From the IMG/VR virus record IMGVR_UViG_3300028394_000040: a stretch of DNA of 64,000 nt. One strand, 5' to 3'. The DNA is from a virus. Positions within the stretch are counted from its first letter, which is position 1. Every line of letters starts with the position of its first letter. The notes beneath the pieces are model-generated. The model worked only from the letters and a program-made list of their open reading frames with translations, searched no databases and was not told the origin of the DNA. The translations under genes and the position numbers were made by a program. Shown one piece after another: positions 43,915 through 51,554 of this stretch.

Positions 43915-44490
43915 TTATCTCTGTCTATCGTATTGAAATTGTCCGTTGTAAAGATTCTCTACAGCTACTTCATCGCAATGGTGAAAGTAAATTTGAGCAA
44001 CTCTAGCATCACACTCTATAAATAGCGTACAGTTAACTGTGAGAATACATCCCATGTTCGATGTTTCGAAACCAGGGTCAAAAACAGAACTATGCATTAC
44101 AGCTCCATTCCTTAATAAAGAAGATCTTTGACGAATAAAACCTGCTAGATTAGAAGGTATTTTGCACCCTTCCCAAAACGTAATATCATACACTCCTTCG
44201 TAAAGTAAATAACCTTCTTTACCTTCTATCTTCTTGGTCTCAACAGGTCTGTATACATTCAACTCAGTCTTATCTTTAAAAATAAAACCTATCTGCGGTT
44301 GATTAGAAATGTAATGTCTCGGGTCAGAAATATTCCAATTGACATTACCTATAGCATTAATCGACTTAACTGATAAGTCGTAACCTACTTGTGCTGGTTT
44401 ACCTTTGCTATCCTCTAACTTAAGTATACCTTTTTCTATTATTTGTTCGGCGTTTAACATTTGCTTAATTTTTAGTTTTATAAAGCGCAA
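43915..44490 (-). CDS. dut: trimeric dUTPase/dCTP deaminase family protein (likely start 44460)
   Basis: GYDL, RSSLLRNG, FDPGF, ARVAQ. Confidence 0.8.
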   Translation of the reverse strand: MRFIKLKIKQMLNAEQIIEKGILKLEDSKGKPAQVGYDLSVKSINAIGNVNWNISDPRHYISNQPQIGFIFKDKTELNVYRPVETKKIEGKEGYLLYEGVYDITFWEGCKIPSNLAGFIRQRSSLLRNGAVMHSSVFDPGFETSNMGCILTVNCTLFIECDARVAQIYFHHCDEVAVENLYNGQFQYDRQR

Positions 44491-45109
44491 CAGATGAACA
44501 CATTTCTAAGAAATACTCTTCAGTCCAATTAGACTTTAATTTATTAATATCCTTATGAACCCATTGTACGTTACCAGTAATGTAACCTTTAGTACTGTCT
44601 ATCCTATCTAAAGACGCCGTATTTTTTTGATATCCGTTTTTATTTAAACTACCTAAAGATACGTCCAAAACTATATCGAAACCTGACAATGCACATATTC
44701 CTCTTTGTTTTTCAAATAATTCCCAGATCTCTTCTATTTTAACTGAAAATTCTAAATTCCTACTTTTAGCTCCGTTTTGAATAACTCGCCACATATCACC
44801 TGATATGTCTTTATAACCTTTCCAAATTTTCGATCTCCTTAGTACTCTCTGTTCTACATTTTCGAACTGTTTATACGCGGTAAGTTTTCTAGTTTCAATT
44901 AACTTTATTGCTTTCTCTTCTCCATACCTTTCGATATAGGATTTACCTTTGCTAAATTTTGAAATTGCTTCTACTGTTTCTCTAGAAGTCATTTTTGCGT
45001 TTGGAAACAGCCTTAAATATTCAGCCAACTCTAACCCGTGTTTATCCCTTAAATGAGTATTAGTAACTTTCTTAAATTTAACTTTACATATATTGCATGT
45101 TACCATCAC
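44465..45109 (-). CDS. HNH-type homing endonuclease with N-terminal Zn finger
   Basis: CNIC..H...H; CALSG, ASLDRIDSTKGYITGNVQWVHKDIN. Confidence 0.8.
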   Translation of the reverse strand: MMVTCNICKVKFKKVTNTHLRDKHGLELAEYLRLFPNAKMTSRETVEAISKFSKGKSYIERYGEEKAIKLIETRKLTAYKQFENVEQRVLRRSKIWKGYKDISGDMWRVIQNGAKSRNLEFSVKIEEIWELFEKQRGICALSGFDIVLDVSLGSLNKNGYQKNTASLDRIDSTKGYITGNVQWVHKDINKLKSNWTEEYFLEMCSSVALYKTKN

Positions 45110-45153: not shown

Positions 45154-45864
45154 CTACTCAGAAATTTTATAACTTCTCGTAAACTCATAGAATTCTGCTC
45201 TTGCTGAATCTTCATCTAAGAAGCATCCTGATAGTTTTGCTGTTTTCATGGATGCTCCGTGATGTTTGACACCCCTGCAGGAAACACATGCATGAGTCGC
45301 TTCGATCAAAACGGCTACACCTTGATTCCCTTCGCAGATTTTATTTACTGCATTGTGAATAGCTACTGTTAACTGCTCTTGGATAGCGCCTCGTCTCCCA
45401 AAGTTCTCAACGATTCTATTAAGCTTTGATAAGCCTACTACCCTACCGTTTTCAGAAGCAATATATGCTATATGTACTTTACCTTTTATTAAGCCGTGAT
45501 GATGACTACACATAGAAACCAGTGGAATACCGCCCTCAAAAACGATTCATGTATATCCATCGCTAGGGAATGCAGTAACTTTATCTAAAGGTTCATAACG
45601 ACCAGCCCATAAATGATTAACGTAGGCTTTAGCTACTCGATGAGGAGTTTCGGATGAGTTTGGATCGTTTTCCCAATCACATCCTAAAGCAGATAAGAAC
45701 CAACCGAACGCTTCAGCAGCATCTTCGATAATTATTTGCTTATCTAAATCAGTTAAACGAGCTTCAGGGCCGTTAATTGCTTGTTTGGCTGCCAATTGCG
45801 TTGATATACCATTAGCGAATCCTGCTTGAACTAGTTCAGTTCCTTCAATAAATTTTTTTGACAT
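45154..45864 (-). CDS. folE: GTP cyclohydrolase I with one in-frame TGA at 45547-45549
   Basis: ETPHRVAKAY...DGYT*IVFEGGIPLVSMCSHH...GLSKLNR...IQEQLT...HACVSCRG, all in one frame. Confidence 0.88.
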
Positions 45865-45897
45865 TTGTGTTTGTTTTTAAGTGGTGCTACGACACTA
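45865..45897 (-). promoter_or_regulatory. candidate preQ1-I-like riboswitch aptamer
   Basis: AGTG-TCGTAGCAC-CACT-TAAAAACAAACAC immediately 5' of the folE ATG. Confidence 0.45.
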
Positions 45898-45917: not shown

Positions 45918-46340
45918 TTACTTTTTTAAATAATCTTGTATAGTTTCTGAATCTTTATTTTCCCAAGGGAAAACTATCCATGCATTAGAATCAATTGACT
46001 CTGCATAATATTCTGGAATATATTTAGAATTAGTTCTCCAAAGTAGGCTTGCAGTAGTAAATCCACAGTAATGAAAATCTACAAAAGTTTGACCAGAATC
46101 GCATATGTCATCAATAAGCAATGTCTTAGCCCTAATGTCTTCCTTTAACATTATAGCATCTTCTACAGATAAAAATTCTATACCAAGCTTATGTGATAGG
46201 AGTACTGCCGGTATTAATCCACCTCTAGCAGGACCTGTAACATACTTCAAATTTTTATTTAACAATACCCATTTTTCGATAGCATATATGTACTCCTCTA
46301 CTCCCGACCATGACAGGTGAATTTTATCTGGTGTTTCCAT
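45918..46340 (-). CDS. type I purine phosphoribosyltransferase (Gpt-like)
   Basis: RGGLIPA; PRPP motif LLIDDICDSGQT; WIVFPWE. Confidence 0.88.
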   Translation of the reverse strand: METPDKIHLSWSGVEEYIYAIEKWVLLNKNLKYVTGPARGGLIPAVLLSHKLGIEFLSVEDAIMLKEDIRAKTLLIDDICDSGQTFVDFHYCGFTTASLLWRTNSKYIPEYYAESIDSNAWIVFPWENKDSETIQDYLKK

Positions 46341-47194
46341 TATACATTAAGTATGCGATCCCAAGCTGAAATGTGCAAACGAGTCAAGCCTGTAAATTTA
46401 TATTTCTTAGCCATTTCCAATACAAATTGAGTACGCTCATGAAAATCATCCTGACTGTCTAGACCTGGCATACAAACTACATTCTTTAAAGGAATGTTAA
46501 ATGGCTCAACGAAATCGCGGAATACTTCTTTAACATCTTCTTCATTAGAGATAACAAACTTAAATTGATAGTTTTGATGCTTCATTATCTGCTCTATAAC
46601 TTCTGGCTTAATACGCTGCTTTACAGTCATACCTGAGTTCTCTAATTTAGGAGAGCAATTAATTTGAGTTAGCCGTACGAACATATCCGGTGAAAATTCT
46701 ACAGTACCGTTAGTTTCAATTTCATTATAAACAAGAAAATCTACTTTTAATAAACCATTACTATAGGATTCGTACTTTGCCCAGTAGTCAATAAAGTTTA
46801 TAATAGCTTCTTGATGTTTTTTCATTGCGGGTTCTCCACCTGTCCAAATTAAATGGATAGTTCCATTTAAAATATCATCGTAGATACCTTGCTCTTTCCA
46901 AGTATCTATTAAGTATTGGAAGTCTTTATTTTCCCCTCTCCATGCCCATTGTGAAGTACTATCACAAGTCCATGTTGCTTTACCTTCTAATTCTAAATCT
47001 CCTTTAAAGATTTCACCATCGGCAAGTTCTTTGCCGTTAATTAAGTTCTTTAAAAATCTAGTAGACATACCACAAGTCAAGTTACACAAACCTAAACGGA
47101 TAAAGTAAGAAGGTACTCCTGTAGATTTTCCTTCGCCCTGTACTGAGTAGAAGTCAGAACTTATTAATAATTTGTTAGGATCTATAGTAGACAT
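46340..47194 (-). CDS. queE: 7-carboxy-7-deazaguanine synthase (radical SAM)
   Basis: SVQGEG, FIRLGLCNLTC...CDS, TGGEP, ETNGT, SPKL, RLH. Confidence 0.93.
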   Translation of the reverse strand: MSTIDPNKLLISSDFYSVQGEGKSTGVPSYFIRLGLCNLTCGMSTRFLKNLINGKELADGEIFKGDLELEGKATWTCDSTSQWAWRGENKDFQYLIDTWKEQGIYDDILNGTIHLIWTGGEPAMKKHQEAIINFIDYWAKYESYSNGLLKVDFLVYNEIETNGTVEFSPDMFVRLTQINCSPKLENSGMTVKQRIKPEVIEQIMKHQNYQFKFVISNEEDVKEVFRDFVEPFNIPLKNVVCMPGLDSQDDFHERTQFVLEMAKKYKFTGLTRLHISAWDRILNV

Positions 47195-47195
47195 A

Positions 47196-47426
47196 TTATT
47201 CGTTGTTAATTTTTTTGTAGACTGAGTTGGTAATGGCTAAAGCCCAAATAGCTAAAAGAACTCTCCACCAAATAGACCAATTAGCTATATTTAAATCCCA
47301 ATTTATAAAGGAAATAATAACATAAGGAATAAATGTTGAGGCAAGAATTAAAATAACATAAGCTAGGAAAGGTAATTTTTTCATCGAATTAAGGAATGTA
47401 TATTGCTGAATTTCTATCGTTTTCAA
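47196..47426 (-). CDS. small two-TM membrane protein (likely start 47384)
   Basis: SFINWDLNIANWSIWWR. Confidence 0.55.
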   Translation of the reverse strand: MKTIEIQQYTFLNSMKKLPFLAYVILILASTFIPYVIISFINWDLNIANWSIWWRVLLAIWALAITNSVYKKINNE

Positions 47427-47853
47427 AGAATTCTACTTTTGTAACTTGGACTCTTCCTGAGGTCTCTTCTATAACAAAAGGATTAACCTTGCTATAAATA
47501 AACTCAGCGAATTTCTCTGCACCTACATCCGGGAGTAGTCTTAACTGTATTACTCCTAGACCGTCCATAGTTTTGTACCCATTTATACCTGGATCGTCTT
47601 CTGCTACTAAACAAGTATGGTCAAACATATAGTCCATCCACTCTTTAGGATTCTTACCATCTATAGTACCTTTAGCTCTTTTCATGCCGCCAAAATCCCA
47701 TACCCAATTTCGCTCATCTAAATCTCCTTCAAACCATAAACGAAAAGATATACCATATCCATGTATAAATTTACAATGAGTGCCTTCGGCTCTCCACTGA
47801 CGGAAAATAGTACTGTATCCGTCAAACAGCTTTGTTGAAATAAACTTTGCCAT
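47389..47853 (-). CDS. queD: 6-carboxytetrahydropterin synthase
   Basis: HCKFIHGY, WDFG, FDHT, GAEKFA, ENDRNSA. Confidence 0.92.
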   Translation of the reverse strand: MAKFISTKLFDGYSTIFRQWRAEGTHCKFIHGYGISFRLWFEGDLDERNWVWDFGGMKRAKGTIDGKNPKEWMDYMFDHTCLVAEDDPGINGYKTMDGLGVIQLRLLPDVGAEKFAEFIYSKVNPFVIEETSGRVQVTKVEFFENDRNSAIYIP

Positions 47854-47862
47854 AATTTTAAA

Positions 47863-48372
47863 TTAAAGGTATTTACTTATTATATCTAATCTCTCCTCAA
47901 CTGACCCTGTTACTTTAATAATTTTTTCAGTCGGTATATGTTTTTCCATAAAGCTTACTATAACAGCGTCTACTTTATTTTGTAACTCCTCGTTAAGTCT
48001 ATCCGGGTCGTAAACAAATCCGAATTCAATAGGAATATAAAAAAAATGTTCTACCTGTTCCTGTGTTTGGTCAAACAACTTAACCATCTCCGATGTATCC
48101 ATCGTAGGATTAATAATTTGGGTATACAAAATACAGTCTACAATACTTCTAGTCGAGATCACGTACTTATGGGAAAGGTAATTTTGATAAGCCCAAGTCG
48201 ATAACTCATTGATTACTAATTGCTTTTCGTAATCAGAGAAGTCTAACTGCTTAGCTATCTTAAATACAGGTCTAGAAAACCCGTCTGTTACATAATAGTT
48301 AGCAAATTTTTCACTAACAGCTTTTAACAACGTACTCTTACCTACACCATGACTTCCTAATAAGATTTTCAT
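47863..48372 (-). CDS. P-loop (d)NMP kinase-like protein (AAA_28-type)
   Basis: GSHGVGKST, TRSIVD, YIPIEF, GSVEER. Confidence 0.75.
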   Translation of the reverse strand: MKILLGSHGVGKSTLLKAVSEKFANYYVTDGFSRPVFKIAKQLDFSDYEKQLVINELSTWAYQNYLSHKYVISTRSIVDCILYTQIINPTMDTSEMVKLFDQTQEQVEHFFYIPIEFGFVYDPDRLNEELQNKVDAVIVSFMEKHIPTEKIIKVTGSVEERLDIISKYL

Positions 48373-49001
48373 ACTTCGAATTCTAAATTTTCTACGGTCT
48401 CTTTTCCTAAAGGTAGTAATTTTGATTTAAGTAAAAAAGTAATCCAACAAGTAAATGATGTACTTTTTAGAATATCATACATACTATCTAAGGATCTAGC
48501 TATATTACTAGTACTGCATTGCATTACTATATCCCCCTCATCTACTCCTTCTGTTACTTTATGAACTACCGAACCGACCTCTCTATACTTACCTTCCCAT
48601 GCCTTAATTTGTGGGTCTTTACCTTTTAATTCCGGATATGAACTAATTAAACCAGGATGGCCGTTGTAGATACTTCCTTTAAAGTTCTTGATAAAAGATG
48701 CAGGTAAAATTCTGAGATATCCGTGTAACGTTATTAAATTACAATTATTTAAAATTTCACTATGATAACTCTCTTCTGTAGGCCTAAAAGGCAGTTTAAC
48801 TATTTCTACATTATTTTTCTTGAAAAATTTTAAGGAATTAGCAGATAATTTATTAAAGTTATTAGTTAACAAATATCCAGGAGTTATATTTAATGCATTG
48901 CATACTTCTACTACTTCCGAACCTGTTTGTGATACAAATACTGCCCATTTAGAAACTTTCATTCTATTGTCCTTGTGCTTTTTTAGTATAAAATCCAACA
49001 T
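48369..49001 (-). CDS. dpdN: PurN-like formyltransferase (candidate DpdN, preQ1 formyltransferase; likely start 48962)
   Basis: SQTGSE, HGYLRIL, NGHPG, VHKVTEGVDEG; directly downstream of queF. Confidence 0.75.
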   Translation of the reverse strand: MLDFILKKHKDNRMKVSKWAVFVSQTGSEVVEVCNALNITPGYLLTNNFNKLSANSLKFFKKNNVEIVKLPFRPTEESYHSEILNNCNLITLHGYLRILPASFIKNFKGSIYNGHPGLISSYPELKGKDPQIKAWEGKYREVGSVVHKVTEGVDEGDIVMQCSTSNIARSLDSMYDILKSTSFTCWITFLLKSKLLPLGKETVENLEFEV

Positions 49002-49884
49002 TTTTTAATGCAGAAGAGATTAACATAGTAGATGATGCCCTGACTGGATTAATATCTAATGAACCACGTCTAGCGTATAATAACATAACTGAACATTCAT
49101 GGACTAAAGGGTTTTTCATTATTTCCAAGTATAACTTTTCACAGCAGAATTCATGGAATTCATTTACTTCTCTTAAAGATATAACTAATTTTAATAATTC
49201 CTTACCGTATACCGAACCTCTTTTAGTTATAATTTTAAAATAAGCAGCACCTGTATCTTTTTGCTTTGTATGTCTACATCTAGAACGAAGAACATTAGTA
49301 AAAGATTTGTTAACCTCTCCTAGCGGATCATCGTCAATAATAATATTATACGATTCTTGAGAGTTATAATCTGTTATTACTAAATTCTGTAATTCAGCTA
49401 GACTAACCGACTTATATAAATCTCGATATCCTTCACCTGGGTCTCTTTCATATATTTTATCTTCTCCAGAACTAAAAAACTTCACCTCGACGTCTGCACC
49501 AATACATTTGCTTATATCTAGTATGACTTGATTCTCATAATTCTCTATAGCTTCTTCAAAAGTAGAGCCCATCTTACACATATCAAAAGAATTTAAATAT
49601 AATTTAAAGCTTTTTGATTCAACCATAAATTCTGAATTAGCCGGACAAATAATTTTTAACGTTCCTGCTACTGGTAAGCCATTATTTAACAAAAACGTAG
49701 CTTCATGACAATGCCAAACATCATAACCTACAAACTCATTTCCGGTAATACCCCAATCACCTCTGGCTGCTGCCCTTGGCATTGGATTTAATAATGATGC
49801 ATCGAATTTATCAGTATAAATTGCATAGGAGTTCTCTGAACCTAGAGACTTACTAGCAAATTCATTCATATTACCACTTGACAT
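48964..49884 (-). CDS. queF: NADPH-dependent 7-cyano-7-deazaguanine reductase (bimodular)
   Basis: VESKSFKLYL, LRSRCRHTKQKDTG, EFHE, YARRGSLDINP. Confidence 0.93.
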   Translation of the reverse strand: MSSGNMNEFASKSLGSENSYAIYTDKFDASLLNPMPRAAARGDWGITGNEFVGYDVWHCHEATFLLNNGLPVAGTLKIICPANSEFMVESKSFKLYLNSFDMCKMGSTFEEAIENYENQVILDISKCIGADVEVKFFSSGEDKIYERDPGEGYRDLYKSVSLAELQNLVITDYNSQESYNIIIDDDPLGEVNKSFTNVLRSRCRHTKQKDTGAAYFKIITKRGSVYGKELLKLVISLREVNEFHEFCCEKLYLEIMKNPLVHECSVMLLYARRGSLDINPVRASSTMLISSALKNVGFYTKKAQGQ

Positions 49885-50671
49885 AGTTCTTAAAAGTTTT
49901 TACGTTTTTATAAATTAATTCTATTTGTTCTTTTTCTAATTTAGTATCTAAATTATCTGCAAGTTTTAAACTAGGTTTTGGTGCTAGTAAGCCATGTTCT
50001 GTAAACTCATTACCTACCCATCCGTTAATAATAGGAGAACTAGTATCTATAGAGTAGATGTAATCAGCTACGGACTGCCCTTTAAATAATTCAAATTCAA
50101 CTGGGTTTAGAGTACCTAGTAAATGAATTTTTAATGCTATAGCCTCATGCAGTTTAAATTTATGCTTATACCACCATTGTAAAAATCTGAATCTTACGGT
50201 AACATAATCAGACTTTTCTATTAAGTCAAAAGGTAAAGCTATAATGTCTATATCTTCACTTAGAAAATAGGACATACAGCTATAAATTTCGTCAAAAGTA
50301 TCTCCTTGGCATACTCCCATATACTTTTGGTCTTTAACTTTATACTTAGCTAAATACTCCTTTGCATTATCTAATGTAACTCTATAGTCATTAACCTTAT
50401 CAGGTAAAACCAAATGTGTTGGTTTATACTCATTACATAATTCAGCTAATTCTTCTAATGGTATAGACTCACCTAATTCAAAAGCAGAATTATCTAAAAT
50501 AGAATAAGAAGATGATGCTAGTTTATTTTTATAAAAGTCTGCATACTCCTTATCCTTATTAAGTAAATGACCTAATACATAAGGGTAATCACTAATTTTA
50601 TCATGCTCACTGAATAACTGCTTAGGAATTTCGTGAGATACTAAAGGTCTTCTCATATACTTACTTCGCAT
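49871..50671 (-). CDS. dpdA: TGT-like TIM-barrel deazaguanine transglycosylase (DpdA, probably DpdA3-like)
   Basis: LDNSAFE, LPD, VCQG, IHLLG, SIDTSS; lies between queC and queF. Confidence 0.72.
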   Translation of the reverse strand: MRSKYMRRPLVSHEIPKQLFSEHDKISDYPYVLGHLLNKDKEYADFYKNKLASSSYSILDNSAFELGESIPLEELAELCNEYKPTHLVLPDKVNDYRVTLDNAKEYLAKYKVKDQKYMGVCQGDTFDEIYSCMSYFLSEDIDIIALPFDLIEKSDYVTVRFRFLQWWYKHKFKLHEAIALKIHLLGTLNPVEFELFKGQSVADYIYSIDTSSPIINGWVGNEFTEHGLLAPKPSLKLADNLDTKLEKEQIELIYKNVKTFKNYVKW

Positions 50672-51554
50672 ATTCGGCTAGTACTTTCTCTACTGATGCT
50701 CTAGCTACATCCCAGCTAACAGGTCCTGTTTCATCTGCATATGCCACCGGATCTGGACGTCCTAAACGAATAAATGCTTCTATACGTTCTACTGATGCTG
50801 CTGATTTATAATCAGAATACCAGTTACCTATCTTCCATCCTTCACTTGTAGGTTGATCTTGTATAAAAATTGGCTTATAAGATGTATTAGTACGTTTATA
50901 TACCTCATTAAAATTTAAACCTAATTTCTCACAAGCTACTAACCCATCTTCTAAAATTTCAAATTTGCTTACTTCTAGATACGGAGTATAGTGGTATACT
51001 AATTCAGAATCCCAATTACCTACTTTAAATGCCTCAAAATCAGCATCACGAAACTCTTGACGACAGTCAGGGTAAATAGCATGATCTCCAGCGTGAATAC
51101 CCATTGCGATAGCTACTTCTTGCTTATCGCCTTTAGTTGCTACAGATAATGCAGCGGCTTGAATTAAAGAAGCGAAAATCTTATTACGATTAGGTACGAC
51201 AGTTTCTTTCATGTTGTCTTGCTCATAATGTCCTTCTGGAACTTCATCACCTCCTGTAACTAAAGCAGAATGTAGTAAGTTTTGTAATCCATCTAATTTA
51301 ATGATTTGATGTTTTACTATAGGATATGCTTCTTCAAATCCACCGAATACATGGTCAGTATGAGTAATTCTCATAGGATTTGTATTAATGTATTCTACTA
51401 AAGATTTAGCCCGGTCTAATTCAACACGGTGTTTTTGACCGTAATCAAACCCTAATGCGGTAACTTCATAGCCGTTAGCTAATAAATGAAGTAATAAAGT
51501 AGAGGAATCCATCCCTCCGCTGAGTGATAAAACTGCTTTTTTTGTACTAAACAT
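50661..51554 (-). CDS. queC: 7-cyano-7-deazaguanine synthase
   Basis: SGGMDS, FDYGQKH, VPNRN, HAGDHAIYPDCR. Confidence 0.95.
   Translation of the reverse strand: MFSTKKAVLSLSGGMDSSTLLLHLLANGYEVTALGFDYGQKHRVELDRAKSLVEYINTNPMRITHTDHVFGGFEEAYPIVKHQIIKLDGLQNLLHSALVTGGDEVPEGHYEQDNMKETVVPNRNKIFASLIQAAALSVATKGDKQEVAIAMGIHAGDHAIYPDCRQEFRDADFEAFKVGNWDSELVYHYTPYLEVSKFEILEDGLVACEKLGLNFNEVYKRTNTSYKPIFIQDQPTSEGWKIGNWYSDYKSAASVERIEAFIRLGRPDPVAYADETGPVSWDVARASVEKVLAEYAK

Follow-up and report, generated by a model that had tools for sequence, protein, structure and literature searches.

The closest described systems are the class I preQ1 (preQ1-I) aptamers, above all that of T. tengcongensis (Tte), whose sequence is CUGGGUCGCAGUAACCCCAGUUAACAAAACAAG (PMC7641330). 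The first-pass annotation of the DNA studied here quoted this sequence with the right letters, and only the break that it placed among them was redundant (PMC7641330). In the Tte aptamer the pairs C9-G33 and G11-C30 flank A10-A32 and G8-A31 (PMC7641330), and in solved preQ1-I structures the A-rich tail lines the minor groove of P1 (PMC7641330, PMC10622847). An AC before the 3' strand of P1 is the signature of types II and III (PMC11625349). P1 spans 5-6 bp in representatives of all three subtypes, and a 30-mer construct of the E. coli type III aptamer has been called the smallest natural aptamer (PMC10622847).

On the phage side, all G is replaced by formyl-preQ1 in the Flavobacterium phage vB_FspM_immuto, and the end products of such pathways are unusual, namely fdPreQ1 in immuto and dDG in phiST (PMC10516641). 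The main paper on these guanine-replacing phages mentions no riboswitch (PMC10516641), and we found no description of a preQ1-type riboswitch in them in the literature searched, although an earlier mention is possible.

The folE leader and its gene cluster

The window, by which we mean the whole 64,000-nt stretch of viral DNA that was analysed, is a phage segment of 33% G+C with nearly all of its genes on the minus strand. Its nearest named relatives are immuto and the Cellulophaga phages phiST and phi13:1. The element lies inside a complete 7-deazaguanine cluster, all of it on the minus strand, which in the direction of transcription runs from QueC (50661-51554) through a DpdA3-like transglycosylase (49871-50671; 32% identical to the DpdA of immuto), QueF (48964-49884), a PurN-like formyltransferase (48369-49001), a P-loop protein (47863-48372), QueD (47389-47853), QueE (46340-47194) and a purine PRTase-like gene (45918-46340, 21 nt before P1) to folE, the gene for GTP cyclohydrolase I (45154-45864). 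The element sits between the last two genes, whose order is common to the window and immuto. The folE product is 77% identical to FolE of immuto and matches Pfam PF01227 on its second half.

The folE start codon (AUG 45864) opens an ORF (45547..45864) corresponding to the N-terminal part of GTP cyclohydrolase I, with an in-frame TGA at codon 106 (45549-45547, minus strand). This site is GGA (Gly) in the 92%-identical relative L004 and encodes Gly in all aligned relatives, and a single GGA-to-TGA change relative to L004 would explain it. Recoding was considered and rejected, the window being densely coding in the standard code and nothing systematic being gained by reading TGA as sense. Judging from the aligned relatives, the TGA is a point mutation or a sequence error; given this premature stop, the gene under the putative switch may be dead in this particular genome. 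Immediately downstream, folE is followed by a 214-aa HNH/endonuclease VII-like gene (44465-45109, minus strand; phrog_3322, E 5e-24), possibly that of a homing endonuclease within the modification cluster.

The full folE leader on the minus strand (45899-45862) reads UGU-AGUG-UCGUAGCAC-CACU-UAAAAA-CAAA-CACAA-AUG, in which the element itself, AGUG-UCGUAGCAC-CACU-UAAAAA-CAAA (45896-45870), has a total length of about 27 nt and ends 5 nt from the folE AUG. The letters and coordinates of the first-pass annotation are correct on this strand, its start at 45897 including one unpaired U. The 5' strand of the 4-bp P1, AGUG (45893..45896), pairs with the complementary 3' strand CACU (45880..45883), and its last G closes the stem as the counterpart of Tte G5. 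The loop between them, UCGUAGCAC (45884..45892), comprises L1 (UCG), the 5' strand of P2 (UAG) and L2 (CAC), the last base of which, C45884, is the putative ligand-pairing C. P1 is followed by the A-rich tail L3, UAAAAA (45874..45879; 6 nt here, 7 nt in most copies), and by the 3' strand of P2, CAAA (45870..45873), where C45873 would pair to G45887 of the loop and A45870 to U45889, for a P2 of two pairs, G-C and U-A, around an A-A. The 5-nt spacer CACAA (45865-45869) leads to the AUG (45864-45862). Neither the window element nor the phage copies described below contain a terminator or a Shine-Dalgarno sequence.

Set against Tte as AGUG / UCG UAG CAC / CACU / UAAAAA / CAAA, with the loop mapped onto Tte U6 C7 G8 C9 A10 G11 ... 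A14 C15 (PMC7641330), the motif shows the nucleotide-by-nucleotide correspondence to a preQ1-I aptamer that had been proposed for it. The counterparts of Tte G5, U6, C7, G8, A10, G11, A14, the specificity base C15, C16, A29, C30 and A31 are invariant or nearly so across the copies, and the Tte C9-G33 pair has a conserved counterpart. The A before the specificity C, directly 5' of the P1 3' strand, which marks types II and III, is present as AC in 48 of 48 distinct copies. Equally invariant are the bases that would read the ligand edge, that is, the first-loop U, the L3-terminal A and the P1-closing G, their roles being taken from the Tte structure (PMC7641330).

On its own, P1 is thermodynamically marginal here. 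The first-pass annotation had cautioned, correctly, that P1 has merely 4 bp and that an alternative GUG/CAC register exists; in ViennaRNA, P1 alone amounts to -1.0 kcal/mol versus -3.6 kcal/mol for a competing GUGU/GCAC hairpin. This difference is consistent with an aptamer whose folding requires the ligand, and is at the same time a weakness of the case. A fifth P1 pair is impossible in any stem version, and in the GGAG, UGAG, UAAG and CCUG versions found in other copies the 4-bp P1 is the sole possible register. Plain folding of the 71-nt intergenic stretch was no better than that of shuffled sequences (z -0.57) and picked another hairpin, which is unconserved in relatives.

Conservation in phages and bacteria

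Rfam returned no relevant match for the whole window at gathering score, for stretches of 201 nt and 48 nt that include the site (E<=10), or for 14 related phage loci and 8 bacterial loci with the same core. The PreQ1 model itself (RF00522; 45 positions, gathering score 39 bits), run alone at E<=10, left the motif unscored in the window, in immuto, in the nearest virus record (G001) and in one genome each of Thalassospira, Vibrio and Marinomonas. The Infernal search with Rfam preQ1 models, which the first-pass annotation had named as a check, was thus negative both at gathering score and at E<=10. The reach of RF00522 is narrow, as only 1 of 14 control genomes passed its cut-off. Weak hits to rli27, let-7 and the TMV pseudoknot were dismissed as chance. 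By Rfam's own model the element is not a member of preQ1-I; by its sequence features it is a class I variant nearest to type II.

Related leaders tell more. Dozens of uncultured phages, and immuto as well, share the loop UCGUAGNAC and the tail UAAAAACA. The least biased sample consists of leaders fetched by FolE protein similarity alone, together with immuto, with no selection for the motif. Here the motif is present in 6 of 31 IMG/VR relatives (L004-L008 and L011) and in immuto. The six carry the stems AGUG, GGUG or UAAG, all fully paired, with the loops UCGUAGCAC, UCGGAGCAC, UUGAAGCAC, UUUUAACAC or UCGAAGAAC, which vary at a few positions only, and the immuto copy, in the leader L001:3098-3136, reads GGAG-UCGUAGAAC-CUCC-AUAAAAACAA and lies 6 nt from its AUG. 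When IMG/VR was scanned for loop and tail with the stem left free, a perfect 4-bp stem accompanied 32 of the 46 hits, the others being mostly three unrelated repeated sequences that resemble chance matches; a looser scan yielded further copies. A loose regular expression found 62 sites in the fetched loci versus 1 in shuffled copies. A model built from 33 copies, the window site among them, scored that site at 41.4 bits (E 1e-6, filters off) and the second-best site of the 64-kb window at 14.8 bits.

Seven stem forms occur, always complementary: AGUG/CACU, GGAG/CUCC, UGAG/CUCA, UGUG/CACA, GGUG/CACC, UAAG/CUUA and CCUG/CAGG. Over 43 distinct copies with a 7-nt L3, both sides change in three of the four P1 pairs (AU/CG/GC/UA; GC/CG; UA/AU) and the closing G-C is invariant; as a control, sliding the P1 partner by 1-3 columns abolished pairing. 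The main alignments were selected for a paired stem, which makes any percentage of paired stems partly a product of construction, and the case therefore rests on the unselected sets and on the seven different stems. Within the loop the U, the A and the final AC are invariant and the C and both G nearly so, being altered only in a few loop variants, and the five A of L3 are invariant in the 43 aligned copies. The alignment of related folE leaders, part of the refutation test set by the first-pass annotation, came out clearly positive, with a conserved loop and tail and a covarying stem. This comparative evidence indicates that the folE leader of this Flavobacteriia-type phage is a real, conserved RNA pseudoknot and not a chance structure.

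The second helix varies less. Of 48 distinct copies, 47 pair a loop G with the tail C; in L008, the only copy with a loop A, the tail carries U, an A-U replacing the G-C. Between loop position 4 and the base three after the tail C, the 43 copies show U-A (25), U-G (6), C-G (4), G-C (1) or no pair (7, among them immuto with U-U), so that 36 of 43 are paired. Wherever loop position 4 is C or G, the matching G or C/U stands three bases after the tail C (6/6), and the neighbouring registers +1, +2, +4 and +5 show no matching changes. The four C-G cases are related sequences and may reflect one evolutionary event. Support for P2 is consistent but thin, given that these copies are close relatives and that the other pair is almost invariant. 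The loop variant UCACAGCAC, which replaces UCGUAGCAC in six small-ORF leaders (L273, L280, L308, L310, L314 and L325), always occurs with the tail CACG, and there the U-G/U-A of P2 becomes C-G, as in the T. tengcongensis aptamer.

The motif is also found in bacteria. About 25 Thalassospira genomes have an identical loop and tail, here with the stem CCUG/CAGG, in front of queC (QueC 187.9 bits). In Vibrio and Marinomonas the same core is followed by a hairpin, a second hairpin and queD, and in the Vibrio copies the first of these is an evident terminator with a U-run. The comparison of related leaders suggested by the first-pass annotation thus extends to queC and queD leaders in Proteobacteria. 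The second hairpin (GUGCUGCAUUGUUA...GGACAAUGCAC) is conserved and overlaps the queD ribosome-binding region (L216:3335-3430, and in L210, L223, L224 and L225; Vibrio, Marinomonas), and the two hairpins may together form an expression platform with two stages. Among 401 Bacteroidia genomes searched by pattern, there were 10 hits versus about 35 for the reversed control; with no enrichment in this sample, an origin of the phage motif in host chromosomes is unsupported. The genome search with model R1 was insensitive, missing known copies in 2 of 4 genomes, as it gave no score to an excess of A-rich candidates.

The phage copies are restricted to positions before genes of the 7-deazaguanine pathway or their neighbours. 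The motif stands before folE in many copies and also before folE2 (Pfam PF02649), a queE-like radical SAM gene and, directly, queD, which extends the comparison to four non-homologous preQ0-pathway genes. A site in leaders of queuosine/preQ0 synthesis or transport genes, as is typical of preQ1-I, is seen for folE, folE2, queD and queE in phages and for queC and queD in bacteria. The commonest phage setting is a 65-92-aa ORF (PDPKxHQxxSFxKSxIR...EELV) whose stop abuts queD; immuto-like contigs have a 107-aa ORF abutting queD behind the motif, and in L168 the motif precedes a 197-aa lipoprotein-like ORF near queC. In phage copies, about 2-9 nt separate the end of the aptamer from the AUG, and there are one to three copies per phage, with one in the window (filters off), one in the 160-kb immuto genome and two to three on some contigs. 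A general phage promoter or leader element was considered, since the AGUG version precedes many different start sequences, and was rejected because one small-ORF family abutting queD and only one to three copies per genome were found. The motif is absent from the Cellulophaga phages phiST and phi13:1, in which folE lies 15 nt after queE.

Several features of these phage loci deserve separate mention. The small ORFs between the motif and queD (65-92 aa) combine the PDPKxHQxxSFxKSxIR signature with a hydrophobic middle and a C-terminal EELV (e.g., L045:2721-2978(-), L054:2708-2905(-), L061:4900-5154(-), L101:8086-8364(+) and L051:846-1121(+)) and have no Pfam or PHROGs match. Relatives are encoded on 452 IMG/VR contigs, with the motif upstream in 22 of the 80 fetched, and the window contains no member of the family. 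Most phage copies share a conserved TTATATT(A) box, probably a phage promoter element, at 8-25 nt upstream of P1 (e.g., L001:3075-3090, in immuto); it is absent from the window and L004, where the motif lies 21 nt after the PRTase gene. Contig L061 (7432-7854(-) and 9572-9957(-)), with four tRNAs and two motif copies, also carries a GOLLD RNA (271 bits) and a tmRNA (116 bits). Contig L218 (NYWG01000135.1, 5.9 kb), labelled as a Verrucomicrobiales MAG, has two motif copies, the small ORF with queD, the PRTase gene and folE, and resembles a phage fragment that ended up in a bacterial MAG through binning.

Proposed function and alternative explanations

Conservation, covariation, gene association and the match to the ligand pocket, all of them read from sequence, support the preQ1-I-like assignment of the first-pass annotation, and from them we infer the identity of the ligand, the OFF direction and an action that masks translation initiation rather than affecting transcription. 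We consider it likely that the leader is a minimal preQ1/preQ0-sensing variant whose bound form would fold over the A-rich, Shine-Dalgarno-less initiation region and repress translation of folE. Through this putative switch the phage would probably throttle the first step of DNA modification when the modified base piles up.

In the proposed mechanism, the FolE-QueD-QueE-QueC-QueF pathway, all of it encoded in the window, would make preQ0 and then preQ1. As free preQ1 (or preQ0) rises, it would pair with C45884 and stack with the G-C that closes P1 on one side and the G45887-C45873 pair on the other, and its binding would lock the A-rich tail into the groove of P1. The folded knot, which would cover positions -6 to -32, lies within the stretch that the 30S subunit must hold single-stranded, and initiation would be blocked. 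The GTP-consuming entry step would thus be under an OFF switch, in agreement with the feedback that the first-pass annotation had proposed, with less folE translation and GTP being spared. Bacteroidia make no use of Shine-Dalgarno sequences, and their initiation is tuned by leader structure and by upstream nucleotides, such as an A at -3 (PMC6847099). Because initiation there depends on an unstructured leader and on these nucleotides, folding should lower folE translation. That preQ1 or preQ0 is the most likely ligand follows from the use of the same core before bacterial queC and queD and from the presence of QueF in the window.

Of the other explanations, the one that survives best, though we regard it as unlikely, is that the same fold binds a different ligand of the 7-deazaguanine pathway (preQ0 only, CDG, the formyl-preQ1 base, 7-deazaguanine or guanine), in which case the phage copies would report a phage-specific intermediate. 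The preQ1-I aptamers known so far have almost the same affinity for preQ0 as for preQ1. The production of fdPreQ1 by immuto and of dDG by phiST (PMC10516641) would suit such a sensor, as would an L2 one nucleotide shorter and a P1 one pair shorter than in Tte and the blindness of the Rfam model to the motif. However, an identical loop and tail stand before queC and queD in Thalassospira, Vibrio and Marinomonas, where no DNA-modification genes are seen immediately around the leaders. Moreover, the specificity C and the ligand-edge U and A of Tte are invariant in the motif, and the QueF encoded in the window implies that preQ1 is made.

A protein rather than a metabolite might recognise the hairpin, making it a translational operator or a processing site, and this we hold to be distinctly improbable. 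Phages do use protein-bound leader operators, and the hairpin is tiny and unstable on its own, with a ligand that is only putative. On the other hand, a core present in both Bacteroidota-type phages and distantly related bacteria would require a shared protein. The Vibrio core is coupled to an intrinsic terminator, like classical riboswitches, the motif is confined to genes of one pathway, and there is a one-to-one match between its nucleotides and the ligand pocket of a metabolite aptamer of solved structure. Riboswitches are usually marked by just such a distribution, with a single motif, shared by phages and two classes of Proteobacteria, in front of five non-homologous enzymes from the same pathway. 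On these grounds a phage-specific protein operator is excluded as the simplest reading. Least probable is a functionless chance hairpin or promoter/terminator remnant between the PRTase gene and folE, for which the shuffle-like fold of the 71-nt stretch and the empty Rfam scans would speak and which is already contradicted by the comparative data, with compensatory stem changes in dozens of phages and in bacteria, placement exclusively before pathway genes and no U-run after the window stem.

Returning to the preQ1/preQ0-sensing variant, a more far-reaching version can be offered tentatively, as something we find conceivable but would not yet favour. The motif could be an uncatalogued fourth class I preQ1 subtype and the smallest natural riboswitch aptamer (about 27 nt, 4-bp P1), a Bacteroidota-phage translational switch independent of Shine-Dalgarno pairing and present in one to three copies per genome, which would balance GTP use against the wholesale replacement of DNA guanine and may be tuned to a phage-specific deazaguanine.

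If the sensing role is confirmed, phages that replace all guanine by a 7-deazaguanine derivative would not run the pathway open-loop, since a phage-borne metabolite sensor would act on its GTP-consuming entry step as well as on queD, queE and folE2. Confirmation would also imply that a P1 of 4 bp and an overall length of about 27 nt, below the 30-mer called the smallest natural aptamer (PMC10622847), are compatible with the preQ1-I fold. It would further imply that translation can be gated by a riboswitch, through folding of the A-rich leader itself, even where the host ribosomes make no use of Shine-Dalgarno sequences. As the motif family is invisible to RF00522, annotation pipelines miss its copies in phages, Thalassospira, Vibrio and Marinomonas.

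Relation to known riboswitches

The THF-II riboswitch (folE motif, RF02977) is, like the motif, a small riboswitch located before folE. It is, however, a long hairpin with internal loops and tied to folate, whereas the motif is a loop-tail pseudoknot associated with 7-deazaguanine genes, and RF02977 gave no match in the Rfam scans of the window and of 201 nt around the site.

Type III of preQ1-I, represented by Escherichia coli (PMC10622847), resembles the motif in being very compact, in its 3-nt L2 and in the AC at the specificity position. Its pyrimidine-rich loop, the conserved UU after P1 with a single-nucleotide L1, the three conserved G-C pairs of P1, the long variable linker and the GGA/AAGG Shine-Dalgarno sequence in P2 are all absent from the motif.

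The likeness is greatest to type II (Tte, PDB 6VUI; the queC leader of Bacillus subtilis), which has the H-type pseudoknot predicted for the motif and the same G-C pair closing P1. Shared features are the UCG of L1, a YAG as the 5' strand of P2, the AC right before the 3' strand of P1, an A-rich L3 ending in A before the P2 C and a site before queuosine/preQ0 genes, and the putative P2 of the motif likewise has two canonical pairs around an A-A. As in Tte, the translational platform comes directly after the knot (PMC7641330, PMC11625349). In contrast to type II, the motif has a P1 of 4 bp instead of 5, an L2 of 3 nt instead of 4-6 and an L3 of 6-7 nt instead of 9, which amounts to a total of about 27-28 nt instead of 33-34, and RF00522 leaves it unscored. 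Its P2 holds no Shine-Dalgarno sequence, and the phage copies run into an A-rich, Shine-Dalgarno-less leader. Finally, where type II serves tRNA queuosine synthesis, the putative target of the phage motif is the DNA-modification pathway.
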